Assembly: GCA_963744145.1 (NCBI GenBank)
Contig: CAVUSO010000001.1
Span: 1,998,831 to 2,062,830, forward strand
DNA from: an uncultured cyanobacterium
Lineage (GTDB): Bacteria > Cyanobacteriota > Cyanobacteriia > Cyanobacteriales > CAWUOF01
Length of the DNA stretch: 64,000 nucleotides
Reading direction: 5' to 3'
Shown here: piece by piece, positions 19,353 through 63,385 of the stretch
Position numbering within the stretch: position 1 is the stretch's first letter
Layout of the letters: every line of letters starts with the position of its first letter
The notes under the pieces: generated by a model
The model's database searches: none
The model's input: the letters and a program-made list of their open reading frames with translations, nothing else
Told to the model about the DNA's origin: nothing
Program-made: the position numbers and the translations under genes

Positions 19353-21596
19353 CCCACATTCCGCACCCTGAACTGTCACAATTCGTAATTACTGAAATAA
19401 ACCTCTATCAAAGCTGAAATTTTGGCCCACTATCGTCAAAAAAGAGGTTTTTAAACCTTGATGGTCAGGTCATCAATCTCTAGTTTATTAATAATTATTA
19501 GCAATAAGTAGAAAATGAGGATTTCGGCCCGTTTTTTCAATAAATTTTGGTGTTGACTAGCTCTCTTAACTCAGTTTTGTTAGTTAATAACTGAACAATC
19601 TCTAGTTAAGATAGGTTAATTCTTAGCTCTTAATTAAATTCAAGAACTCATTCAAGCTAAATATATTTATGCTATATTAGCAAGAGGATTAAGTGATAAA
19701 TTTATAGTAGCGCCGACAATCTTCTGGTAGCAGGGTCAGGATAAATTCACGTTCATTACTCCAATTAGATACTTGTTGTTGTTGTTGAAATGTGACCAGG
19801 TGAATTGCTTGAAAGCATTGAAATATCCATTTAGCTGTTGGACGGTCTGTTGCTTTCCCTAACTGATTTTTTATGGTTGATTTTGCTGCTGATAAAGCGG
19901 CTCGTATTTGTCTTTGTGCTAGGGTATAAACCAGTAAACCTAGCCCCATAATTGCTGCTAATGATTCGATGCGTTCGGGACTTTTCAGATAAACACTATC
20001 TGCAAAAAATGTGGGATCTTTAAGAAAACCAAATCCTCTTTCACAGGATTGCTGTGCCTTATACTCAGTCAGCATTGCCTCATTACTAATTTCGCTTTCT
20101 GCTAAAACGTTCGTCGCAATTATGAATCTACCTGCACTGTTAGTTTCTTGTTCAATTTGGCTTTTATCCTCGGTAAAACTGCCGAGAATTTGATAACACT
20201 TTTTTTGACTTTTATCTAATTTATCTGGTCTGATTTCCCTGACTTCTTTTGGTTCAATTTGATGATATTTAAAGGATTTCGATAGGTGAGTTAATGCCTT
20301 GACTGCATCAGCTTTACAGGCAAATCTATCTTGGGATAATTTTCCTAATTCGCTGTTCAGTTTGGTGGCGGATTTACTAATTTTCTGTGATAATTTCCGT
20401 AAATCTGATTCTCTTCTTTCTTGACTTTCCACAACTAGCCATCTTTGCTTTATCCCACCATAAGTCTGCTCTTTTGCCGCCCATGAATATCCAACTAATT
20501 TGCTTTTAGTAAATTCTGAATCTGGCAAATTTGCTACTAATTCTTGGGCTAATTTTATCTTTAACGGTACTCGGCTTAACCACTTAATTTCCGACATTAA
20601 TTTGAGATTATCTTCTGTATATAAGGCACAATCAGCTACGATTAAACTATCTACTTTTATTTGATTTTTATAATCAATTGCTATCTTCGCAAAGCATGAT
20701 GAGTCGGCTTGATTTCCTGACGCTGCTTTTAAAAATATTGGGATATCTCCATCCCCGGTACATACTAATTCTATTAAAAATTGTTTTAAATCAGGTCTAT
20801 GGTCACGGGAATAACCGTAATTTATTTTGATTGGTTGTCGCGATTTTATTTGGGGCTCTCCTTGGTATGACAATTCTGGCTGACTAAATATTATCTCTGG
20901 TAATTCTTGATGATATTCCCCATGTACGTGAATTGACGATGAGTCTAGATGGGATGTATTTAAAGATATATCAAACTTTTTAACTGCATTTAAAGTAATT
21001 GCTAAAAATATTGTATCCAGTCCTTTACTATATAGTTTATCCATCACTCTTCCCAGTTTATCGTCATTTAAATATTCGGGCTTTACCCCGGCTCCTATTA
21101 AATGTTCACAGGGAATTGATTCAAAAAATTTCGGAAACATATATAATGGTTTAGAAATAAATCCTAACCCATTGATAATCATTGCTTTAACTGCTTGTCC
21201 AGCAGTAACTTTTTCTCCCGATTCTATCCCGATTAAATTATTAATTATTTCTACTATTCCAATCGTATCTACTATTCCTGCTACTAACCCCAGATGGTCG
21301 ATATTCTGAATTTTAATATCGTTTATGTCTACCATAGTTACCCAATTTAACGAGCCAATTTTTGGTTCAATTATCGCATTTTTAGGCTCGATTGCAATTA
21401 ATTTTTTTACTCTTTCATTTTCCGGACTTCTGCTACGGTTAATCTCTCAATAACCCAGGACCTCTTTCTGCTCATAAATCTAGTTTAATAAAATTTATTC
21501 TCATTAATCTCATTTATGATCTTTTTGAGCCAACTTTCTTCGTCCCCAATTTTTACCCTTTTATTAAGATGTGCCAGTGAGGGTGCGGAATGTGGG
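19353..21596 (-). mobile_element. IS1634/IS4-like insertion sequence, copy 1 (2244 bp) with terminal inverted repeats CCCACATTCCGCACCCT and 6-bp TSD TTATAA
   Basis: Terminal inverted repeats at 19353 and 21596. Flanks are gatTATAA|ccc and ggg|TTATAAcg. Carries the intact 548-aa transposase (19689..21335). Confidence 0.85.
19689..21335 (-). CDS. DDE transposase (IS4 superfamily, IS1634-like)
   Basis: 548 aa. N-terminal IQNIDHLGLVAGIVDTIGIVEIIN...NDDKLGRVMDKLY region characteristic of IS1634-type transposases. Near-identical (frameshifted) copy at 41158..42806. Divergent paralog at 36281..37921. Confidence 0.8.
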   Translation of the reverse strand: MVDINDIKIQNIDHLGLVAGIVDTIGIVEIINNLIGIESGEKVTAGQAVKAMIINGLGFISKPLYMFPKFFESIPCEHLIGAGVKPEYLNDDKLGRVMDKLYSKGLDTIFLAITLNAVKKFDISLNTSHLDSSSIHVHGEYHQELPEIIFSQPELSYQGEPQIKSRQPIKINYGYSRDHRPDLKQFLIELVCTGDGDIPIFLKAASGNQADSSCFAKIAIDYKNQIKVDSLIVADCALYTEDNLKLMSEIKWLSRVPLKIKLAQELVANLPDSEFTKSKLVGYSWAAKEQTYGGIKQRWLVVESQERRESDLRKLSQKISKSATKLNSELGKLSQDRFACKADAVKALTHLSKSFKYHQIEPKEVREIRPDKLDKSQKKCYQILGSFTEDKSQIEQETNSAGRFIIATNVLAESEISNEAMLTEYKAQQSCERGFGFLKDPTFFADSVYLKSPERIESLAAIMGLGLLVYTLAQRQIRAALSAAKSTIKNQLGKATDRPTAKWIFQCFQAIHLVTFQQQQQVSNWSNEREFILTLLPEDCRRYYKFIT

Positions 21597-48583: not shown

Positions 48584-49933
48584 ATGGCTAAATCTAAACC
48601 TAAGCAATTAATAGGAGTGCAGCAGATATTATTATCACCAGACAATGAGACTAAAGCATTGTTACAATACCTGTGTGAGCAATCAGGTAAACTTTATAAC
48701 TGTGGGGTATACTATGCGCGGCAAATTCTGTTCAAAACTGGGAAACTACTAACTAATAAATTTGCTTTAGCGGTTGAACCATCTGTAGCAAAAAGCTTAT
48801 TGGCTCAATCAATGCCATCTACACCAATGCAACAAACATTGATGTCTGTAACAGAAGCATTTAAGTCCTTTCAGCAACTAAGAGATTTATATATCAAAGG
48901 TGAGTTACACTTTCGACCAAAACCACCTCACTATCTGAAAGGTTCTAAACTGTTCAAAGTAGCTTATCCGAATTCAGGGGCTCAAAGACCAAAGCTAATT
49001 AATGGTCAATTAAGATTTTCGTTAGGGCTAACAGTAAGAAGATGGTTTGGGATTGATGAATTTTTCTTACCCATGCCTGCTAATCTTGACTATTCATCAG
49101 TCAAAGAGTTTACTATTCTGCCTAAAAATGGTGCTTTTTACCTAGAGGTATCTTATGAAATAATTAAAAAGGAACATAGATTACATCCAAATCATGCTCT
49201 ATCAATTGACTTAGGGACTGCTGACAATCTCGCTGCTTGTGTTGATACTTTAGGTAATTCCTTTTTAATTGATGCTCGTGCTATGAAAGCCATGAATCAA
49301 CTTTGGAACAAGAAAGTATCAACTAGAAAAGAAGGAAAACCAGAGGGATACTGGGATAATTGGTTAGACCGGATTACCCGGAAACGTAACCATCAAATGC
49401 GTGATGGTGTTAATAAAGCAGCTAAACTGATAATTAAACATTGTTTAACTTATCAAATTGGCACTTTAGTAATTGGTTGGAATCAGGACTTTAAAACTAA
49501 TGTAAATCTGGGTAATTTGAATAATCAAAAGTTTGTTCTTATGCCTTTAGGAAAACTAAAAGAACGACTCCAACAACTCTGCATTTTAAACGGCATTAAG
49601 TTTGTAGAAACCGAAGAGGCTTACACTTCCAAAGCTAGCTATCTTGATGGAGACTCCCTACCCAAATATGGCGAAAAACCAGAAGGGTGGAAAGCATCTG
49701 GACGGCGAGTAAAAAGAGGTTTGTACCGCACAGCTCAAGGTTTTTTAATCAATTCCGATTTGAATGGTGCGGCGAATATTTTAAGGAAAGTAGCCAAGAA
49801 CCTAAACTTAGATTTAGGCAGACTGGGTAGACGGTGTTTGACGACCGTAGCGAGAATTAGACTTTGGGTACTACCTGAAGGGGCGTATTGCAATACGCCC
49901 GTACTTTGTCCGCAGAATCGAGCGTGTCTTTAG
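48584..49933 (+). CDS. tnpB: TnpB (IS200/IS605-family OrfB), second non-identical copy, no tnpA
   Basis: 449 aa. OrfB N-terminal region, RuvC motifs (DLGTADNLAA, ...EEAYTSK..., SDLNGAANIL). The C-terminal zinc finger appears degenerate. Confidence 0.75.
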   Translation: MAKSKPKQLIGVQQILLSPDNETKALLQYLCEQSGKLYNCGVYYARQILFKTGKLLTNKFALAVEPSVAKSLLAQSMPSTPMQQTLMSVTEAFKSFQQLRDLYIKGELHFRPKPPHYLKGSKLFKVAYPNSGAQRPKLINGQLRFSLGLTVRRWFGIDEFFLPMPANLDYSSVKEFTILPKNGAFYLEVSYEIIKKEHRLHPNHALSIDLGTADNLAACVDTLGNSFLIDARAMKAMNQLWNKKVSTRKEGKPEGYWDNWLDRITRKRNHQMRDGVNKAAKLIIKHCLTYQIGTLVIGWNQDFKTNVNLGNLNNQKFVLMPLGKLKERLQQLCILNGIKFVETEEAYTSKASYLDGDSLPKYGEKPEGWKASGRRVKRGLYRTAQGFLINSDLNGAANILRKVAKNLNLDLGRLGRRCLTTVARIRLWVLPEGAYCNTPVLCPQNRACL

Positions 49934-50400: not shown

Positions 50401-51888
50401 CTACAGTTACAATACGGTTCGGTTAAGCTAAAAATCAGGTAAAATGAAAGTGTCACCTAAATGGAATGAGTAGGAATGCAGCTCAAAGAATTCACTGTAA
50501 TATCACCTGTGGTCGAATCAGGGATGATCCTCAAAGCGTTAGAAACAGCGATTCCATCGACAGCAATTGAAAAAGCCATTGAAGATACCAATAGAAAAGA
50601 GGAACGACAAAGAGCATTACCAACGCATCTGGTTATCTGTCTAATCATTGGGATGAGTCTATGGTCTAGGGGGTCAATGAGGACAGTGTTGAAAAATCTG
50701 GTTGATGGCTTAAATGAAGCATGGGTCAGAGTTAGTTATTATTGGCGAATACCATGTAAATCATCAATTACAGAAGCTAGACAGCGAGTAGGTGCAGGGG
50801 TAATGCGGCATCTGTTTCACATAGTAGTTAGACCACAGGCTACTAGGGAAACCCCAGGGGCTTTTTTAGGTGAAAAGCGAATTATGGCTGTAGATGGAAC
50901 AGTGTTTGATGTGCCAGATAGCGACACAAATGCCAGAGTATTTGGATATCCAGCTAGTCGTCCTGGAACTAGAGCCGCGTTTCCCAAGGTGCGTTTGGTT
51001 CTATTGATTGAAGCAGGAACACATTTAATTGTAGATGCCTTGATCTGCCCTTACCGAATCGGTGAGCGAGTCAGAGTGAAAAGGTTACTACGGTCAGTCA
51101 CCACTGGAATGTTATTAATGTGGGATCGTGGATTGCATTCTTATGCAATGGTGCAAGCCACCTTGTCCCAAAAATGTGATTATTTGGGACGCATCCCCAA
51201 AAATGTTAAATTTCCTGTGGAGCAGGTATTGGATGATGGTTCCTATCTCTCCTGGATTGCTCCCGACGGCAAGTCGAAAAAACAGGGCATGACCAAAATT
51301 ATGGTTCGAGTCATTGAATACACTATTGATAATGGCGAAGCACAAACTTACCGTCTGATTACCAGTTTGACGGACATCGCTTTATTTCCAGCTTTATTAT
51401 TAGCCACAGAATATCATCGTCGTTGGGAAGTTGAAAATACTATCGATGAATTGAAGGTTCATCAATTGGGACGTAAAACTCTGATTCGTTCTCTTCATCC
51501 CCGTGAAGTGGTTCAGGAAATTTATGGTTGGCTCCTCGGACATTGGGCGGTTCGTTCTCTCATGTTGACCGCGGCCACCTCTGCTCACATCTCCCCTTTA
51601 CGATTGAGTTTTACTGGTACTCTCAATGTTGTCCGTCGTGCTATTCCCAAATTTCAGCGCCTTCAACCAGAAGAATTTCCCCTTTTTTTTAGTTGGTTGA
51701 TCAGGGAAATTTTGGATGAACCAATTCCCAAACGTGAAGGTAGAAGTAACCCTCGTGTTATTAAAAAAACTCGCGCCAAATTTCCATCCAAGAAACCAAT
51801 TCATAGAGGTCAGGGAGTTAAACATGAAACCCTCAATTTTTCTATCCTCAATACTGCTTAAAGCTTAACCGAACCGTATTGCCTACAG
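50401..51888 (+). mobile_element. IS4-family insertion sequence with near-perfect terminal inverted repeats (core CAATACGGTTCGGTTAAGCT, about 20 bp)
   Basis: Left inverted repeat 50401..50429 and right inverted repeat 51862..51888, read directly. Carries transposase 50476..51861. A partial extra inverted-repeat copy follows at 51889..51910. Confidence 0.8.
50476..51861 (+). CDS. IS4-family DDE transposase
   Basis: 461 aa with DDE_Tnp_1-type organisation. Flanked by the inverted repeats above. Confidence 0.75.
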   Translation: MQLKEFTVISPVVESGMILKALETAIPSTAIEKAIEDTNRKEERQRALPTHLVICLIIGMSLWSRGSMRTVLKNLVDGLNEAWVRVSYYWRIPCKSSITEARQRVGAGVMRHLFHIVVRPQATRETPGAFLGEKRIMAVDGTVFDVPDSDTNARVFGYPASRPGTRAAFPKVRLVLLIEAGTHLIVDALICPYRIGERVRVKRLLRSVTTGMLLMWDRGLHSYAMVQATLSQKCDYLGRIPKNVKFPVEQVLDDGSYLSWIAPDGKSKKQGMTKIMVRVIEYTIDNGEAQTYRLITSLTDIALFPALLLATEYHRRWEVENTIDELKVHQLGRKTLIRSLHPREVVQEIYGWLLGHWAVRSLMLTAATSAHISPLRLSFTGTLNVVRRAIPKFQRLQPEEFPLFFSWLIREILDEPIPKREGRSNPRVIKKTRAKFPSKKPIHRGQGVKHETLNFSILNTA

Positions 51889-53035: not shown

Positions 53036-53845
53036 TTATTCTAGAAAATCCATTACTACCTTTGATATTTCTTCAGGTATCTGGTTCATCATGCAAATTG
53101 TTCCACTTTCAATATCAATCATCTTAGCATGAGGAATTGCTGTTAAAATAAACTCCCTATTGTCAGCGTTAGCAAAACCTAGTCTTTCTAATTGTTTTAC
53201 GTCTTCTGTACCCGATAATATTAGGGTTGGAGACTTAATTAAACCCAATCTTGCTTCCATTCTTTGGCAGTAGTCAATCACAGCCAAAGGTGCATACCAA
53301 GGATGGCCAAAACATTTTAAATCGTCTAGAACCCAACGGTGATTTAACTCAGCAGAACCTATATAGTTTGCTCTCGCTAACCATCTTTGCATGAGATGGG
53401 AACCGTCTGCTTGTATATTAAGATTTTCAAATTTATTGGATAAAGCTACTTTTCCCGATTCACTAAAATTATCTATGTTGCATAAGATAATTTTTTCAAC
53501 TCGCTCAGAATAAGCTGCTGCTACTTCTGCTGCTACACAAGCACCTGTGTGGTTGCCAAGAATACTTGTGGTTTTGATTCCTAATTCGTCCAGGAGTAAA
53601 ATAACAGTTTTTGCATAATCTTCAATTGAATACATTCTTGGAGGTTTATCGGAATCTCCTAATCCCAATAAGTCCATGGCGATAACTAGCCTCTTCTGAG
53701 CAAAGATTGGTATCAATTCTCTAAATTCATCACTACTTCTGAAGTTTTGATGAAGTAAAAGAAGAGGTTTGCCCTTGCCACCAATACGGTAAAGAATCTG
53801 CCCATCTTCGGTATCTAAAAAAGCTCGCTTGATTGGTTGATTCAT
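53036..53845 (-). CDS. Alpha/beta hydrolase fold protein
   Basis: HQNFRSSDEF oxyanion region, an elbow-like LGNHTGACVAAE and a C-terminal His region. Fold assignment is fairly secure. The nucleophile is atypical (Thr/His in place of Ser). Confidence 0.55.
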   Translation of the reverse strand: MNQPIKRAFLDTEDGQILYRIGGKGKPLLLLHQNFRSSDEFRELIPIFAQKRLVIAMDLLGLGDSDKPPRMYSIEDYAKTVILLLDELGIKTTSILGNHTGACVAAEVAAAYSERVEKIILCNIDNFSESGKVALSNKFENLNIQADGSHLMQRWLARANYIGSAELNHRWVLDDLKCFGHPWYAPLAVIDYCQRMEARLGLIKSPTLILSGTEDVKQLERLGFANADNREFILTAIPHAKMIDIESGTICMMNQIPEEISKVVMDFLE

Positions 53846-54364: not shown

Positions 54365-55981
54365 CTATTTATTTGGCGATTCTTCAATTTTAAAATAACG
54401 CTCTAATTTCAATGGTTGCACAGGAGTAAGTTTTTTTACTTCCTCAGTTAGATCCAACCAAGGTTGTAATTGATTAGATTGGAATGTATGATTGGTGACT
54501 ACATAAATTGATTTTTGCTCACCACTAATTCCGACAGAAACAACATTTTTCCAAGCCCGAGCATACAGGACATCTAAGCAGCACCATTGGTTATTTTCCC
54601 ACCGTAAACGTCTATAAAAACGAAAAGGTGCTAGTTTTTTTCCTGTCATCAACATTTTTGGCAATAATTGGTAAATTAAATTGGGGGAAAATCTTGCTAT
54701 GATTGATATTACTGAGCGGAAAAATTCCAATTTGATCAGAGTTAGATCCGGGATATTTTCCCAACTTAGCGCACCTTGAATAATAATTTCATCATCAACG
54801 ATTTTAATTTCATATTGCTCTGACATATCAACAATAGCATTTTTTATTTGTCTACCTCTTCGTACTTGCACACTAAACTGGGTATCGGTAAAAATCAGTT
54901 GATCATTGCGAAATATCTGAAAAACTCCTCCTTGTTTAAGCCCCATATATAGTTCCAGATTTTCGCGTCTGTCGATCAGGATACCAGCTTCTTTCAACCA
55001 AATTTGTCCTCGTTCTCGTTGGGGTTTTGCTGGACGTTCAGATCCAAAATCTTGCCAAGCTAATAAATAATTGCTCAACCGATGTCCACTGATATAATCA
55101 TCAGCATAGCCAAGGTTTTGGTGATTAGCAAGAAGCGTTAAAAAAGCATCATTAATTTGCAAAGCTTCTGGATACCAACGACCAACTAATTCAAACCCAT
55201 GGGGAAAGAAATTATAGGTGTTGTAATTACCAGATTCACCACTATAGGAATGATCAGGGTAAATAAATTGAATTGCTAATTTAACAGCTTTAACGATCGC
55301 TTCTTTTAGTCGTTCATCTGGTCGAATTTCATAGAGTCGAGCTAAACAAGATATAGTTAATGTCTGCTCACCAGGCTCGAAACCGATCGCTTCAGGAAAC
55401 CAACCTTGTTCATTTTGTAAATCCAAAAACCGCTCTAGACGTAACGTTTTTTCTCGATCCCATTTGGGACTTTGGCAAACTTGTCCTAAGCGTTCTAAAC
55501 ACAAGATAATTAGTGCTTGATGATTAGTTAATTGATGGGTTTTAGGTAATTTGACTAGCCAGTTTCCTTGATTCTTAAAAAATTGAAAAACTTTTTTATT
55601 AGCCAATCCTAATAATTGATAACTTTCCAGACAAGCTAATAAGGAAAATACTGCTGCTGTACTTCCATATTGCAGCGGATAATAGTAATCCCAAAGAGGA
55701 AAGAAATTGCTACTTTTAGCAGTATAAATAATTGCTGCTTCCACCCAATCGCGGAGCAGTGGTTGTTGATAGAATGAATTATTGGGAATATCAGTAGCGT
55801 ACACTAAAGCAAGTGGCCAGACTAATTCTTGTCCACTTCGATTGGGAAAGTTAGTAATTTTATAGTGCCAAAAATTGCGATCGAAACACCCATAAGTAGG
55901 ACTATGGGGATGACGATCTAACAGTGTTAAGAGTTTCGGAATTTGGGCTAAAGCGACAAGGGCAAACAGCTCTTTACTCAC
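54365..55981 (-). CDS. Hypothetical protein, possibly heparinase II/III-like (alpha/alpha-toroid) polysaccharide-processing enzyme
   Basis: 538 aa with Trp/Tyr-rich helical-repeat composition. No firm motif. Confidence 0.3.
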   Translation of the reverse strand: MSKELFALVALAQIPKLLTLLDRHPHSPTYGCFDRNFWHYKITNFPNRSGQELVWPLALVYATDIPNNSFYQQPLLRDWVEAAIIYTAKSSNFFPLWDYYYPLQYGSTAAVFSLLACLESYQLLGLANKKVFQFFKNQGNWLVKLPKTHQLTNHQALIILCLERLGQVCQSPKWDREKTLRLERFLDLQNEQGWFPEAIGFEPGEQTLTISCLARLYEIRPDERLKEAIVKAVKLAIQFIYPDHSYSGESGNYNTYNFFPHGFELVGRWYPEALQINDAFLTLLANHQNLGYADDYISGHRLSNYLLAWQDFGSERPAKPQRERGQIWLKEAGILIDRRENLELYMGLKQGGVFQIFRNDQLIFTDTQFSVQVRRGRQIKNAIVDMSEQYEIKIVDDEIIIQGALSWENIPDLTLIKLEFFRSVISIIARFSPNLIYQLLPKMLMTGKKLAPFRFYRRLRWENNQWCCLDVLYARAWKNVVSVGISGEQKSIYVVTNHTFQSNQLQPWLDLTEEVKKLTPVQPLKLERYFKIEESPNK

Positions 55982-56176: not shown

Positions 56177-59100
56177 ATGCGAGAAATTTTTATGCAGCTT
56201 TTGTCATCAGCTTTGATTATCCTTCTTCCAGAGATTGATCTAGGGAATCCCAAATTAATCTGGCTGCAAATTGGCTCAGAATTAATTAGCGCTTTTTCTT
56301 ATTACTTAATGCTCGCGATTATGGTCTATATGTTCCGTCATAGATGGAATCTAATTGGGAACGGGATACTTCTGTTATTAGGTGCTTTTTTGATTTTGTG
56401 TGGCACTAACCATTTACTTGCAGCATGGATTTGGTGTCAACCAATTGTAGAGACACCAACAATTATAGCTAAATTATATTGGGCTTCAGGTTTACTCAAA
56501 TTCCTCACTGCTTTAGTTAGTATTTTTACCGTTTGGCGTTTGGGATTATTTATCCCTACTATACTTACTAAATGTCCAGCTCAAGATAATGTGAATTTTC
56601 AAATATTCCTTGATTCTATTATTGAAAATATTCCTGATATGATTTTTGTCAAAGATGCTAAAAATCTTCAATTTGTGCGTTTTAACAAAGCTGGAGAAGA
56701 ATTACTAGGATATAGTAGAGAGGAATTAATTGGTAAAAATGATTATGATTTTTTTCCAAAAGAAGAAGCAGATTTTTTTACATCTAAAGATCGAGAAGTA
56801 TTGAAAAATAGTCCTAATGTTACAGATATTACCGAAGAAAAAATCCAAACTAAAAAACAAGGTGTCAGAATCTTACATACTAAAAAAATAGTTATTTGTG
56901 ATCAAAATAAACAGCCTAAATATTTATTAGGAATTTCCGCCGATATTACTGAGCGCAAACGTTCAGAAGAAGAATTACGAGAATCAGAAGCAGCAATTCG
57001 TTCTTTGTATGAAATTGCCTCAGCATCTTCATTAATGTTTGAACAGCGATTGCAAGATTTGTTGGCAATGGGTTGTCGTCGGTTTGGATTAGAAATAGGT
57101 ATTTTATGTCGAATAACTGAAGAAAAAGAATCTGAAGTTATTGCTTTTAATTTATCTGAAAATGCTAATTTAACTATCTCTCCAGCAGATTTTGGTAATT
57201 TAAACAATATTTTTTATCAAAAATTAGAATTAAAAAATTCTTCATCTGTATCTGATCCTGTCTTCAATTTTGAGCGGGACATTTTAGATAATTTTCAAGG
57301 GGAAGAAATAAATTTTGATTTAACTTATAATCAGCAAAAGACAGCCAAATTACCAACTTATTTAGGAGCAGTAATAGTTGTAGCAGGTCAAAATTATGGA
57401 ACTATTAGTTTTTGGAGTTTTTTCCCTCGTTCTGCACCATTTAAAGCGGGCGATCGCAAGATTTTACAACTAATGTCACAGTGGGTAGGGGGAGAAATTG
57501 AACGTCAAATTGCAGAAACATCTCTCCAAAATCAATTTCAACGAGCAGAATTAATTAAACAAATTACTCAAGAAATTCGAGCGAAGTTAGATACTCAAGA
57601 AATCTTTCAAACCACCAGCAATTTACTCGGGAAAGGGTTTCAAGTCAATCGCTGTATAATTCATAGTTACGTCACCGAGCCGATCGCCAAAGTTCCATTT
57701 ATGGCTGAATATTTAGAACCGGGATATGAATCAATTTTGAATTTAGAAATACCAATTATTGGTAATCCTTACATGGAACAATTACTAGCATCAGATCGAG
57801 CGATCGCTTGTGCGGATGTGAGAACAGAACCATTACTAAAAAACATTGAAAGCATCTGTCAGCAAATCCAACTCAAATCAATATTAACAATTCGGACTTC
57901 TTATCAAAGACAGCCAAATGGAGCGATTAGCTTACATCAGTGTGATCATTTTCGTCAGTGGACAGAGCCAGAAATCGAACTCCTCGAAGCAGTTGCAGCC
58001 CAAGTAGGAATTGCTTTAGCTCAAGCACGTTTATTAGAACAAGAAAAACGCCAACGTCAACAATTATCTGAACAAAATTTAGCATTAGAGCAAGCAAAAA
58101 TTGCTGCGGAAGCTGCGAACCAGGCAAAAAGTGAATTCTTAGCGATGATGAGTCATGAAATTCGGACACCAATGAATGGTGTGATCGGGATGACCGGATT
58201 ACTCCTATATACAGATTTAACTGCTCAACAACGAGACTTTGTCGAAACAATCCGCAATAGTGGGGATGCGTTACTAACAATTATTAATGATATTCTCGAT
58301 TTTTCCAAAATTGAAGCTGGAAAACTTGAATTAGAAGAACAACCCTTTGAGTTACGCAGTTGTATTGAGGAAGCTCTTGATCTCCTAGCACCTAAAGCAG
58401 CCGAAAAAGAATTAGAATTAGCTTATATTATCGCTCCTCATAGTCCCAACCACTTTGTTGGTGACGTGACTCGTTTGCGGCAGATTTTAGTGAATCTAGT
58501 TAATAATGCCATTAAATTTACTAATCATGGCGAAGTCATAGTCTCGGTTACAGCAATTAGTAAAGAATCAGAAATTAATCATGCCAAATTTGAAAATATT
58601 TCCCCGAACGCTCGGAATGTTATAACTACTGATTATGAAATTATTTTTGCCGTAAAAGATACAGGGATTGGAATTCCTCCGGAACGGATGAATCGGTTAT
58701 TTCGTTTTTTTACTCAGGTAGATTCATCCACAAATCGTCAATATGGAGGCACCGGATTGGGGTTAGCAATTAGTAAACAATTGACCGAAATAATGGGTGG
58801 TAGAATGTGGGTAGAAAGTATGGGTGCGATCGCAGGTAATCCTCCAGAGTCAGCCCTGGGTAACCAGACTGACATGTCAATCAATCAACTAATTTTACCT
58901 CAATTTTTATTATCAACCAGCCCTCATTTCCACTCAATTTCCTCGAGCCTCGGTTCTACTTTTTATTTCAGTGTGATGGTTAAATCAGTTCCAGATATTT
59001 CACCGAGAAAAAAAATTCAGTTATTGCCCCAGTTGAATGGTAAACGTTTACTGATTGTGGATGATAATACTACTCATCGCCAAATTTTAACTTGGCTAGC

Positions 59101-60343
59101 ATTATCTTGGGGAATGCTACCCCGAAATGCCCAATCAGCAACAGAAGCTCTGACATTACTCCAGACCAATGAACCCTTTGATCTGGCAATTTTGGATATG
59201 CAAATGCCAGAAATAGATGGATTAACCTTAGCTAAACAAATTAAATTGTTACCAGAACGTAAATCTTTGCCGTTGGTAATGTTAACTTCCATCGGTAAAC
59301 CACCAATGCAGTCAGAAGCAGAAATAATTGAATTAGCTGCTTGGTTAGCCAAACCAATCAAACAATCCCAGCTTTATGAATTATTTCAGCAAATCTTCAG
59401 CAAACTCGAACCGTCAGAAATTGTCTCACCCTCAGATCAAAATATTTCACAGAATCAAGCAGATTGGGCTTGGGGCAAAGCTCGTCAACCTGGTAGTTTA
59501 TTTACTCCTATTACCAAAATTCACACTTCTTTAAGAATTCTTTTAGCAGAAGATAATGTGGTGAATCAAAAAGTAGCCCTACGTTTACTAGAACGATTGG
59601 GATATCGGGCTGATGTAGTTGCGAATGGATTAGAGGTTTTGGCAGCACTAGAGCGCCAAAGATATGATGTAGTCTTAATGGATGTGCAAATGCCGGAAAT
59701 GGACGGTTTAACAGCAACTAAGCTCATTTGTGAAAAAAAACTACCCGCTGATCGACCTTGGATTATTGCCATGACCGCTAATGCTATGCAAGGCGATCGG
59801 GAAATATGTCTAGCAGCAGGCATGAATGATTATATTAGTAAACCAATTCAAATGGAAGGATTGGAGTTAGCCTTATTGCGTTCTAGCCCAGTTGATTTAG
59901 CCCCACCAGATCTAGATTCTGGACCAGCAATCACCAGCGTGGAATCTTCCCGTTTGCGATATCTATCAATTCTCAGTCCAGCTCTGGATGCAAAAGTATG
60001 GAAAATCTGGAGGGAAAAAGTCAGTCAGGGAAATAAAGTTATTCTCAATCAAGCCATCGAGACATACTTAAATAAAGCTACTCATCTAGTTCAAGTGATC
60101 GCGATCGCTGTTGATGCTTTTGATGGGGCAGAGTTAGTCCAGGCAGCGATCGAGTTAAAATCGATCAGTTTAGATATCGGTGCCAATATTCTGGCATCTC
60201 TATGTTTGGAATTAGAAGCATTAGGACGGGAAGGTTTTCCCCCTGATCGATGGACACTGCTTGCCTCTATTGCCTTAGCTTATGCTTCACAAGTAGATGC
60301 AGAATATGAAAGAGTGAAAATCGCTTTAGCGAGCGAAATCTAG
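56177..60343 (+). CDS. Hybrid sensor histidine kinase with N-terminal ETR1-type ethylene-binding transmembrane domain, PAS, 2x GAF, HisKA-HATPase, 2x REC and C-terminal Hpt
   Basis: The N-terminal TM region aligns with the Arabidopsis ETR1 ethylene-binding domain ([19 protein letters not shown] / [32 protein letters not shown] against ETR1 DFFIAIAYFSIPLELIYF / [26 protein letters not shown]), including the Cu-ligand Cys and His. H-box [17 protein letters not shown]-box [10 protein letters not shown]. Two receiver domains ([18 protein letters not shown]). Confidence 0.8.
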
Positions 60344-60345
60344 CA

Positions 60346-61965
60346 ATGTTAGGCATAAATAATCTTGAAATCGAAAAAACCTCCCAGATTATTCTCGTGG
60401 TCGATGATGACCGAGCCATGAGGATTTTGCTCCGACGGGCGATGGAACAAGAAGGTTATCAAGTTGAAGAAGCTCAAGATGGTGAACAGTGTTTAGCTGC
60501 TTATCAACGTCTGTCTCCCCATATTATTCTGATGGATGCAATGATGCCCATCATGGATGGCTTTACTTGTTGTATCCAGCTCAAACAAATGGAGAAAAAA
60601 CACGATCGCCAAACTCCGGTGTTAATGATTACTGGTCTTGATGATCCGAAATCTGTAGATCGTGCTTTTGATGCTGGTGCGATCGATTACGTCACTAAAC
60701 CAATTCATTGGCCCGTTCTGCGCCAGCGGGTCCGTCGTTTGTTAGAAGCTAGTCGTGCGATGGAGGAGTTACGACAGCAAACTCAGCGGGAAAGACTGAT
60801 GTTGGAAATGCAAGAAAGTATCCGTCAGTCTCTTAATCTCAAAGAAATTCTCAACACTACAGTACAGGAGGTGCAGAAATTTTTGGCTACCGATCGGGTA
60901 ATCATTTATTCTTTTCAGTCAAATTGGTACGGAACTGTAATAGTGGAATCAGTCGCATCTGGCTGGCTCCCAATGGTAAATTTGGATCTCAAAGATTTTG
61001 GTTTTAGCAATTCCGAAAATTTCTTATCTTGCTCGATCATTCAACAATATCAACAAGGCTACTGCCAAGCCATCAATGATATTCAGCAGGTTGAGGTAGA
61101 ACCTTGTTACGTCAATTTATTAGCTCATTTTCAGATTAGAGCTAGTTTAATTGTGCCGATTTTGCAAGAATCTAATCCCCCATCTAGTCTTTATCCCGCT
61201 TCATCAGAATGGTCTACCATCAATGCTGATTTTTTCCGCTCACCCATGAGTGGCGCGTCCGTTCCCCCCTATAATTCTCAGCAGGGCTTATGGGGATTGT
61301 TGATTGCTCATCAATGTTCAGGTCCCCGTCGTTGGCAACAATCGGAAATTGATCTGGTGAAACGTCTAGCCACTCAAGTAGCGATCGCGATTAAACAAGC
61401 TCAACTCTATCAAAAATTAGAAGAAGCTAACCGAGAATTGCAACGTCTTTCTACTTCTGATAGCTTAACTGGATTAGCCAATCGTCGTCGTTTTGATCAA
61501 TACTTTGAATGGGAATGGGTACGTCTATCTCGTGAACCTGGTTACCTTTCTTTGATTATTTGTGATCTTGATTTTTTCAAAACTTATAACGATACTTATG
61601 GTCATCAAGCTGGAGATTCTTGTTTACAGCAAGTTGCTGATGCAATTCGGATGGTAGCACGTCGTGCCAGTGATTTAGTTGCTCGTTATGGTGGTGAGGA
61701 GTTTGCTGTAATTTTACCCAATACAGACCTAGGTGGTGCTGTCCAAGTTGCTGAAATAATTCGTGCTGAAGTAGCCCAACTCAAAATTTCCCATCCTCAG
61801 CATGAGGTAAAACCATCAGTAACTCTTAGCTTAGGGGTAGCTAGCACAATTCCTAACCCCCATTCTTTCCCAGCTCAACTAATTGCCGCAGCAGATACAG
61901 CTCTTTATCAAGCTAAAGCCCAAGGACGTAATCGGGTCGTTGGCACTAATTATTCTACAACATGA
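60346..61965 (+). CDS. Response regulator with REC, GAF and GGDEF (diguanylate cyclase) domains
   Basis: REC ([11 protein letters not shown]), a central GAF, and a GGDEF active site RYGGEEF. Starts 3 bp after the hybrid kinase stop. Confidence 0.85.
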
Positions 61966-62576
61966 TGACTACTCTATATCAATATATTTTGTTTTATAAG
62001 CCCTATGGGGTGTTAAGCCAATTTACTGATCATCCTAGTCAAGACTGTTTACGTCCTACTCTGAAAGACTATATTCCTGTTCCTTCTGTTTATCCAGTTG
62101 GACGACTAGATACAGATAGTGAAGGGTTAATGCTATTAACTAATGATGGCAAATTACAAAATCGTCTTTGTCACCCTCGTTTTGCCCATCCCCGGACTTA
62201 TTGGGTGCAAGTTGAACATATTCCAGATGATTTAGCCCTGATCCAACTCGCTCAAGGGGTCGTTATTCAAAATTATCATACTCGTCCAGCTCAAGTCCAG
62301 TTATTGTCGGTGCCCCCTCATCTTCCCCCTCGCGATCCACCCATTCGCTTTCGCAAAAATGTCCCAACTGCTTGGCTGGAAATTACTCTGACTGAAGGTA
62401 AAAATCGTCAAGTACGTCGGATGACTGCTGTGGTAGGATTTCCAACTTTGCGCTTGGTCCGGGTCGCGATCGGCTTTCTCCGTTTAGATGGTCTTGAACT
62501 CGGTCAATGGCGTAACTTAACTGGGGCTGAAGTAGCTCAGTTAAAACGGCTGAAAACTTCGGATTTTAGACTTTAA
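61962..62576 (+). CDS. Pseudouridine synthase, RsuA/RluE family (no S4 domain)
   Basis: Catalytic motif [18 protein letters not shown]. 204 aa. Confidence 0.75.
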
Positions 62577-62653: not shown

Positions 62654-63385
62654 TTAATCGGCTGTAGCTAATTCGCTATTATCACGATTGCGACGATTGG
62701 TCAAACTATTAAACAACATCCGACCGATCGCTTTAATCAAATTCCCTTCTAGTTCGTTGAACATATTCATGTTCATCCCAAAAGCTGCATTAGCTTCAGC
62801 CACGATCTGATCTGCTGTTGCTTCATCAATATCTAGATCGTTCATAGCTTGACGATAGGTATTTTTAAATTCCTTCTCGTCTGGAATATCTACAAATTCG
62901 TAGAACTCTGTACCTTGTCCTTCTGATAGGTTCATCGCCCGTTGGGCAATTCCCTTGAGAATTTGACCACCCGATAGATCCCCAAGATACCGCGTATAGG
63001 AATGGGCTACTAAAAATTCTGGTTTAGTTGCCGATACTTCTCTAATTCTACGGACATAATCTTCACAGGCTGGAGAAGGCTTAACTTCTTCTTGCCAATT
63101 TTTGCCATAGTAAAAGCTTAAATCCTTTTCCAGACTACGTTTGCGATTAAGTTGGGGAAAATAAATTTTGGAAACGATCGGATGTTGACTGCGACGTTCC
63201 ATCTCTTCTTCCATCGCGGAGTAAACGAAATATAGATTACCCACCAACTTGCGATAGGATGTTTTTTCCACAACACCTTTCAAAAAACACTTGACAAAAT
63301 GAACATTTTCTGCCATACTGTGGGACTTTTTAGTTCCCTCACGTAACTTTGTTGCTAAATTACTACTCATTCTCAAATTTCCCAA
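62654..63385 (-). CDS. ho1: Heme oxygenase 1
   Basis: N-terminal LATKLREGTKKSHSMAENVHFVK (proximal His) and overall HO fold sequence. Confidence 0.85.
   Translation of the reverse strand: MGNLRMSSNLATKLREGTKKSHSMAENVHFVKCFLKGVVEKTSYRKLVGNLYFVYSAMEEEMERRSQHPIVSKIYFPQLNRKRSLEKDLSFYYGKNWQEEVKPSPACEDYVRRIREVSATKPEFLVAHSYTRYLGDLSGGQILKGIAQRAMNLSEGQGTEFYEFVDIPDEKEFKNTYRQAMNDLDIDEATADQIVAEANAAFGMNMNMFNELEGNLIKAIGRMLFNSLTNRRNRDNSELATAD

Follow-up and report, generated by a model that had tools for sequence, protein, structure and literature searches.

CdgK (All2875) of Anabaena sp. PCC 7120 is a hybrid histidine kinase with the domain order TM-CHASE-5xPAS-GAF-HisKA-HATPase-REC1-REC2-HPt, where TM is a transmembrane region, REC a receiver and HPt a histidine phosphotransfer domain. 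The gene is co-transcribed with that of CdgS (All2874), a response regulator with diguanylate cyclase (DGC) activity (PMC9927289). The phosphorelay was mapped experimentally as H1149 to D1604 (REC2) to H1757 (HPt) to D60 of CdgS, and phosphorylation of CdgS was found to raise its DGC activity (PMC9927289). REC1 proved dispensable, whereas the PAS3-5 and GAF domains are required for function; the H1757A substitution and deletion of the HPt domain were both nulls, His1757 being essential (PMC9927289). The present report concerns a gene pair of comparable architecture in a 64,000-nucleotide stretch of DNA from an uncultured cyanobacterium (assembly GCA_963744145.1, contig CAVUSO010000001.1, positions 1,998,831 to 2,062,830), hereafter the window. 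The first gene encodes a hybrid histidine kinase with an N-terminal ETR1-type ethylene-binding domain (EBD), and the second, directly downstream, a response regulator DGC (Table 1).

The window kinase shares with CdgK the GAF-HisKA-HATPase-REC-REC-HPt module, and likewise lies upstream of a receiver-controlled cyclase. The two proteins differ in their sensory region, CdgK sensing via TM-CHASE-5xPAS whereas the window kinase carries ETR1_N and no CHASE match, and in the HPt domain, where CdgK needs His1757 and the window kinase has Ile1325.

SynEtr1 (Slr1212/UirS) of Synechocystis, a dual ethylene and UV/violet-light receptor, resembles the window kinase in combining an EBD, PAS and GAF domains and a phosphotransferring histidine kinase (PMC11819568, PMC6682694). 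However, SynEtr1 carries a photoactive cyanobacteriochrome (CBCR) GAF in the kinase itself, whereas the GAF domains of the window kinase lack the bilin-binding Cys. A DNA-binding regulator and a small RNA receive the SynEtr1 signal, whereas the output in the window is a diguanylate cyclase with a CBCR-like GAF of its own. A further difference is that the window kinase is of hybrid type, its two REC domains being followed by a pseudo-HPt domain. GeiEtr2 of Geitlerinema sp. PCC 7105, an organism that responds to ethylene at parts-per-billion levels, has a comparable layout (EBD-PAS-PAC-GAF-kinase-REC) and a diguanylate cyclase gene alongside, but it has 1025 residues, one receiver and no HPt domain (PMC6682694). 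Its EBD was described as 41% similar to that of ETR1 (PMC6682694), and the window EBD is 29% identical to that of ETR1. GeiEtr2 was grouped with the DGC gene by Allen et al. (2019; PMC6682694), and the adjacency is thus already in print; in the literature searched, no paper was found in which a route from ethylene to cyclic di-GMP (c-di-GMP) was tested or explicitly proposed. Arabidopsis ETR1 has in common with the window kinase a three-helix N-terminus with a Cys and a His in helix 2 and a Lys in helix 3, ahead of GAF, histidine kinase and receiver domains. It differs in that its N-terminal disulfide residues, Cys4 and Cys6, are missing from the window kinase, in that the window kinase has extra PAS, GAF, REC and HPt-like domains, and in that ETR1 signals through CTR1, not by phosphotransfer.

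The ETR1-type domain and its divergence

The N-terminal domain of the window kinase almost certainly belongs to the ETR1_N family. Residues 27-130 match Pfam ETR1_N (PF25487) with an E value of 2.4e-18 and 66.6 bits against a cut-off of 27, and the domain scored 74.7 bits against a model of 149 bacterial EBDs built without it. A word-indexed search for homologues of the 142-residue TM domain gave no matches; an exhaustive HMMER search with kinase residues 1-142 was used instead and yielded 1301 representatives at E <= 1e-3, of which the top match was only 44% identical. A family alignment was assembled from the window EBD, 149 of these 1301 representatives and the ETR1 N-terminus. The numbering of the ETR1 sequence used agrees with Asp25, Cys65, Thr68, His69 and Lys91 as named in papers, and the sequence scored 90.6 bits against a model built from bacterial EBDs only.

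In this alignment, Cys75 (codon 56399-56401) of the window kinase stands in the column of ETR1 Cys65, which is Cys in 149/150 sequences, and His79 (codon 56411-56413) in the column of ETR1 His69, which is His in all 150. Gly76 occupies the equally invariant Gly66 column (150/150), and Lys108 the column of Lys91 (Lys in 142/150), the helix-3 residue that is the polar partner of Asp25. Tyr42, equivalent to ETR1 Tyr32, is also kept. The AlphaFold2 (AF2) model places helices at residues 25-59, 62-87 and 94-131 with a mean predicted local distance difference test score (pLDDT) of 73.8, and the hydrophobic peaks coincide with them. An earlier reading of the window, made from the sequence alone, had proposed an ETR1-type N-terminal domain with Cys and His at ETR1-equivalent positions, quoting a 13-residue string that corresponds to kinase residues 72-84; the PF25487 match and the family alignment confirm that proposal. 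Its statement that the domain aligns closely with ETR1 was overstated, since the identity is 29%, the domain is the most divergent EBD of its clade and Asp25 is replaced by Glu. Two supporting details were borne out only in part. The match of FRHRW to FPYRW appears only in a pairwise BLAST alignment with a 6-residue gap, although R54-H55-R56 aligns ungapped with a family R-K-R after the first TM helix (TM1). Conservation in helix 1 is only partial: Asp25 is replaced by Glu35, Ile35 by Met45 and Pro36 by Leu46.

These replacements are uncommon in the family. Glu35, in the ETR1 Asp25 column, is the sole Glu among the 150 sequences, and the positions of Ile35, Pro36 and Ile62, where the window kinase has Met45, Leu46 and Leu72, are Ile in 147/150, Pro in 132/150 and Ile in 143/150, respectively. 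A 2006 study by Wang and colleagues is said to list Tyr32, Ile35, Pro36 and Ile62 among the ETR1 residues needed for ethylene binding. Further departures at near-invariant columns include Phe58 to Leu, Thr75 to Ile and, two residues beyond Thr75, a conserved Trp to Cys. The D..PF loop motif is lost, and 10 residues (91-100) are inserted between the second and third TM helices.

The divergence was quantified by comparison with seven relatives. The window EBD is 34-40% identical to those of the relatives, which are 49-75% identical among themselves, whereas in the kinase-receiver core the corresponding values are 58-66% and 56-73%. The ratio of EBD to core identity is 0.55-0.64 for pairs that include the window kinase; among the remaining pairs it is 0.80-1.12, and the two ranges do not overlap. 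Accelerated divergence is thus confined to the EBD, and the kinase core is normally conserved.

What do these changes imply for ethylene binding? Position 25 was reported to be Asp in 93.55% and Asn in 3.67% of 1221 EBDs (Azhar et al., 2023; PMC10266040). In the same work, the D25E variant of ETR1 bound only minimal copper in vitro, its ethylene binding in yeast was lowered but still detectable, and in planta it conferred insensitivity to ethylene (PMC10266040). These data point to weakened function in the window EBD rather than an ordinary ethylene receptor. If the domain is still an ethylene binder, its affinity is probably altered and most likely lower. Binding at physiological ethylene levels appears slightly less probable than its opposite, and ethylene sensing by the window kinase is plausible.

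The clade offers a comparison in this respect. Among 17 hybrid-kinase relatives bearing an EBD, 6 are fully canonical, 3 nearly so, and 8 (P0006, P0008, P0010, P0015, P0022, P0026, P0027 and P0037) lack the Cys ligand, which is replaced by Ser, Gly, Asn or Val; the Lys91 equivalent is also gone in P0008, P0010 and P0015. These Cys-less ETR1_N domains are otherwise well conserved, and the genes of their hybrid kinases are still followed by one for a DGC regulator. The copper site is evidently dispensable in some lineages, and this recurrent loss in well-conserved domains implies that Pfam ETR1_N matches are not all candidate ethylene binders.

The kinase-cyclase pair and its phosphorelay domains

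The kinase and regulator genes meet at the junction ...atc TAG ca ATG..., with 2 nt between the stop codon and the next start codon. A terminator scan between the two genes revealed no convincing terminator; promoter and terminator scores were at the level of shuffled sequence and are uninformative alone. Among seven related loci examined, six have a co-oriented gene for a DGC response regulator directly after that of the EBD kinase. The regulator is of REC-GAF-GGDEF type in a Nostocaceae metagenome-assembled genome (MAG; L081, 16 bp away), in Anabaena sphaerica FACHB-251 (L089) and in a Nostocales MAG (L004), and of REC-GGDEF type in Oscillatoria princeps (L085), Microcoleus FACHB-68 (L086) and a Chroococcales MAG (L087). 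The order of kinase followed by DGC regulator is therefore conserved across Nostocales, Oscillatoriales and Chroococcales. Given the tight spacing and the six adjoining DGC regulators in seven related loci, the window kinase and cyclase are very probably partners. The earlier reading had the cyclase gene start 3 bp downstream; of the ethylene to c-di-GMP pathway that it drew from this, the partnership of kinase and cyclase stands as very probable, whereas a simple phosphorelay route is not assured, because the HPt His is absent.

Two of the related loci show a second kinase. In L089 (3898-13913) and L004 (8685-16188), a single REC-GAF-GGDEF regulator has an ETR1_N kinase upstream and a CHASE hybrid kinase downstream. 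The upstream kinase of L004 has decayed to a 398-residue remnant in which EBD TM helix 1 is fused to REC2-HPt, and the HPt domain of its CHASE kinase is a separate 127-residue open reading frame (ORF). In a further locus (L088), a Nostoc CHASE-type homologue of the window kinase is followed by a REC-GGDEF gene. The A. sphaerica locus has the same gene order as the window pair, with a kinase of 1344 residues that is 45% identical over residues 145-1387 and a regulator that is 50% identical to that of the window. It differs in having a fully canonical EBD (D-Y-I-P-F-I-C-G-H-K), an HPt domain with its His, a CHASE-type hybrid kinase after the regulator and Cys-Gln in the regulator GAF.

The window kinase has the order EBD-PAS-GAF1-GAF2-HisKA-HATPase_c-REC1-REC2-pseudo-HPt. 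GAF1 is a divergent generic GAF; the homologous region of the L006 kinase, a 50%-identical relative, matches Pfam GAF at E 1.4e-12. GAF2 is of the phytochrome/CBCR lineage, with Protein Data Bank (PDB) matches to RcaE (8k9o, 7e-20) and 6oap (2e-12), and has Asn556 at the canonical Cys column, which in 118 GAF2 homologues is Ser in 52, Ala in 31, Gly in 9 and Cys in only 5. GAF2 was considered as a cryptic CBCR, and this was ruled out by the Asn at the Cys column and the generally Cys-less lineage. The earlier claim that neither kinase GAF has the Cys-His chromophore dyad holds, in that both domains lack the bilin-binding Cys. In the catalytic core, the N, G1 and G2 boxes of HATPase_c are all present. 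A Ser/Pro/Asn-rich, lineage-specific insertion of about 40 residues, absent from relatives, follows the G2 box (58815-58950, residues ~880-925).

The C-terminal HPt-like domain departs from its homologues at the phospho-acceptor itself. This column holds Ile1325 (codon 60149-60151) in the window kinase versus His in 59 of the 59 closest homologues; these read A-H-T-L-K-S-T-S-A-T-L-G-A around the phospho-His, and the 14-residue stretch of the window kinase has Ile at the His position. With Ile1325 instead of His, a CdgK-type His-Asp-His-Asp relay cannot finish within the window kinase. The relay being broken at this point, phosphate would have to reach Asp64 of the regulator either directly from His660 or via another HPt protein or kinase; otherwise the kinase would serve as a phosphate sink or docking partner. 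Arabidopsis AHP6 likewise has an HPt fold without the phospho-accepting His, but it is a free-standing plant protein that inhibits the cytokinin phosphorelay, whereas the pseudo-HPt of the window forms the C-terminal domain of a hybrid kinase in a bacterium.

The regulator comprises REC (residues 16-130, Asp64), GAF (164-349) and GGDEF (370-530, E 1.2e-53) domains, has GGEEF as its active-site motif (449-453) and RASD as its RxxD inhibitory site (I-site, 440-443), and belongs to a family of cyanobacterial proteins that are 45-58% identical. Its GAF is of the CBCR lineage and far nearer to CBCRs than is GAF2 of the kinase: the best 20 PDB matches were all CBCRs or CBCR derivatives, led by 6oap (3e-41), with 6bhn/NpR6012g4 (4e-31), miRFP670nano (2e-28) and AnPixJ (1e-22). 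Cys254 aligns with the chromophore-binding Cys of 6oap, RcaE, NpR6012g4 and miRFP670nano. The column is Cys in 74/120 REC-GAF-GGDEF relatives, with His (52), Tyr (30), Gln (19) or Leu (9) as the next residue. The window regulator has Tyr255 there rather than His; solved CBCR-type GAFs do not all have a His after the Cys, the residue being Leu in RcaE and Tyr in miRFP670nano. All four regulators of this type that are paired with EBD kinases keep the Cys, as CY in the window, CH in L081 and CQ in L089 and L004. Bilin binding by the regulator GAF is possible, though less likely than not. The description of the receptor as ethylene-only is not established, since a CBCR-lineage GAF with the canonical Cys254 makes light input to the pair possible. 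In this GAF, about 36 residues of a lineage-specific, Ser/Pro/Asn-rich insertion come after the VPILQ strand (61174-61281, residues 277-312); the closest relatives of the regulator, P0271 and P0272, have a longer insertion at the same place.

Explanations of the pair

The window copy is a divergent ETR1-type kinase joined to a CdgK/CdgS-type relay and a DGC regulator; the initial observation is confirmed and its interpretation partly supported. Sequence comparisons favour, with fair but limited assurance, a CdgK/CdgS-type two-component operon in which an ETR1-type copper/ethylene-binding domain serves as the sensor instead of CHASE. In such an operon, ligand binding in the membrane domain would change autophosphorylation at His660, which would in turn alter phosphorylation of Asp64 on the cyclase and hence the synthesis of c-di-GMP. 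The signal would pass to the regulator directly from His660 or via another HPt protein or kinase; alternatively, the kinase may act mainly as a phosphate sink or docking partner. The CBCR-type GAF of the regulator (Cys254) may add a second input.

Several points weigh against a CdgK/CdgS-type operon with an ETR1-type sensor. The window EBD retains only 23 of the 34 columns with at least 90% family conservation, so that retention of the Cys, His and Lys is statistically indistinguishable from chance. Loss of the Cys in 8 of the 17 relatives implies that an EBD can decay to a mere membrane anchor, and the window copy may follow. The HPt His is indispensable in CdgK and is Ile in the window kinase, and direct transfer from His660 to Asp64 is an assumption. 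One of the seven related loci, L006, has no regulator downstream of its EBD kinase, the sole exception among them. Finally, homology to CdgK/CdgS is inferred from the shared architecture and from the Nostoc CHASE-type homologues.

How do the alternatives compare with a CdgK/CdgS-type operon sensing through its EBD? A clean ethylene to c-di-GMP pathway, in which an ethylene-only receptor kinase drives the adjoining cyclase by phosphorelay, would agree with the Cys and His of the EBD, with the kinase GAFs lacking a bilin Cys and with the conserved adjacency of kinase and DGC genes. It is unlikely, however, given the strong divergence of the EBD and its Glu at a position where the same change leaves ETR1 plants ethylene-insensitive, the absence of the HPt His that CdgK requires, and a canonical Cys in the CBCR-lineage GAF of the regulator, by which the pathway need not be ethylene-only. 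The same divergence, being limited to the EBD, agrees with a second explanation, in which that domain is functionally dead or a membrane anchor and signals enter via the kinase PAS and GAF domains, the regulator GAF or both, for a generic CdgK-like control of c-di-GMP. The binding site decays recurrently in the clade (the 8 relatives without the Cys), the window EBD has the lowest score among members that keep Cys and His, and CdgK needs PAS3-5 and GAF. However, Cys75, Gly76, His79 and Lys108 are kept, with an acidic residue at position 35, and the Cys-less members are less diverged overall than the window EBD, so that divergence and site loss appear to be separate processes; this explanation is considered somewhat unlikely.

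A further possibility is that the kinase is a paralogue in decay or without signalling activity, and that a different kinase, encoded elsewhere in the genome, is the one that controls the regulator. The intact ORF of 1388 codons speaks against it, as do the kinase-REC core, conserved as among relatives (58-66% identity), and the intact His660, ATP-binding boxes and both receiver Asp residues; nor is there a second kinase within the 64-kb window. In its favour are the unique substitutions at two otherwise invariant sites (Asp25 to Glu and the HPt His to Ile), several lineage-specific insertions in the kinase, and the loci of relatives: in L004 only a TM1+REC2+HPt remnant is left of the kinase, beside a persisting regulator and CHASE kinase, the L089 regulator is flanked by both kinases, and Nostocales loci thus have a CHASE kinase beside the same regulator. 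Decay of the whole kinase is judged distinctly unlikely. A more speculative combination, and an improbable one, is that the EBD, its copper site kept, has been re-tuned by the Asp to Glu change and a new TM2-TM3 loop for another affinity or for a small ligand other than ethylene, that the HPt-like domain docks without a His or transfer is direct, and that light would enter via the cyclase GAF, so that gas and light would be merged on c-di-GMP. SynEtr1 combines gas and light inputs in one protein, and a pair with a re-tuned EBD would split them.

Surrounding genes and wider meaning

The coordinates of the pair, its domains and the adjoining genes are collected in Table 1. The pseudouridine synthase gene is probably co-transcribed with the regulator gene. 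Related loci carry other genes downstream, and the pseudouridine synthase and heme oxygenase neighbours are not conserved there. The heme oxygenase gene was considered as support for a bilin link and was given no weight: it is convergent, unconserved in related loci and a common cyanobacterial gene. Within the 64-kb window, no kinase or HPt gene other than the EBD kinase was found.

Table 1. Coordinates of the kinase-cyclase pair, its domains and the adjoining genes in the window
Feature	Position	Strand	Basis or remark
Hybrid histidine kinase, 1388 aa	56177..60343	+	ORF; Pfam and NCBIfam domains
ETR1-type ethylene-binding domain, residues 27-131, three TM helices	56255..56569	+	PF25487; family alignment; AF2
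PAS, residues 145-262	56609..56962	+	PAS_4 E 9e-14, PAS E 3.8e-11
GAF1, divergent generic GAF, residues ~275-460	56999..57556	+	Pfam GAF E 0.19
GAF2, phytochrome/CBCR lineage, residues 472-614	57590..58018	+	Pfam GAF E 3.3e-16
Kinase core: HisKA (650-715, His660), HATPase_c (762 to ~935)	58124..58981	+	Pfam; motifs
REC1 (957-1075, Asp1007), REC2 (1121-1231, Asp1169)	59045..59869	+	Response_reg, two stretches, E 3.6e-45
HPt-like domain, residues 1294-1380	60056..60316	+	Hpt E 2e-4, 21.9 bits, under the 24.6-bit cut-off
Response regulator diguanylate cyclase, 539 aa, REC-GAF-GGDEF	60346..61965	+	ORF; Pfam; motifs
CBCR-lineage GAF of the regulator; Cys254 (61105-61107), Tyr255	60835..61392	+	PDB matches
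Pseudouridine synthase gene	61962..62576	+	PF00849 E 4.9e-22; 4-nt overlap (ATGA) with the regulator stop codon
Heme oxygenase gene, convergent, just beyond the pseudouridine synthase gene	62654-63385	-
538-aa ORF, divergent from the kinase gene, 195-bp intergenic region	54365-55981	-	no Pfam match at E <= 0.01

Farther upstream, an alpha/beta hydrolase (53036-53845, minus strand) falls in a 42-member cluster at 90% identity, mostly from Nostoc spp. and Heteroscytonema, whereas SMC, the heme oxygenase and other window proteins are singletons at this level. This cluster pattern suggests recent horizontal transfer of the hydrolase gene, which adjoins transposase genes of IS4 type (50476-51861) and of IS605 OrfB/TnpB-like type (48584-49933). 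Insertion sequences are abundant in the first half of the window. A DUF4277 and DDE transposase is present twice, at 19689-21335 (minus strand) and 36281-37921 (plus strand), the copies lying about 15 kb apart in opposite orientation.

An ETR1-type hybrid kinase followed by a diguanylate cyclase response regulator is a recurrent cyanobacterial operon, which has its phosphorelay module in common with CdgK/CdgS, the characterised cell-size system. One cyclase is flanked, in some Nostocales, by kinases of ethylene-receptor type and of cytokinin-receptor type (CHASE). To our knowledge, bacterial ethylene receptors have been shown functionally in three organisms only, Synechocystis, Geitlerinema and Azospirillum, none with a known c-di-GMP output. 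The window copy is a natural experiment, in which Asp25 is replaced by Glu as in ETR1 mutagenesis and the HPt His is lost, and it can show which parts tolerate change. The broader pattern is more interesting than the window copy, and the canonical locus of Anabaena sphaerica is the better experimental entry point. Overall, the operon pattern offers a concrete path, open to experiment, by which a gaseous signal could act on c-di-GMP.

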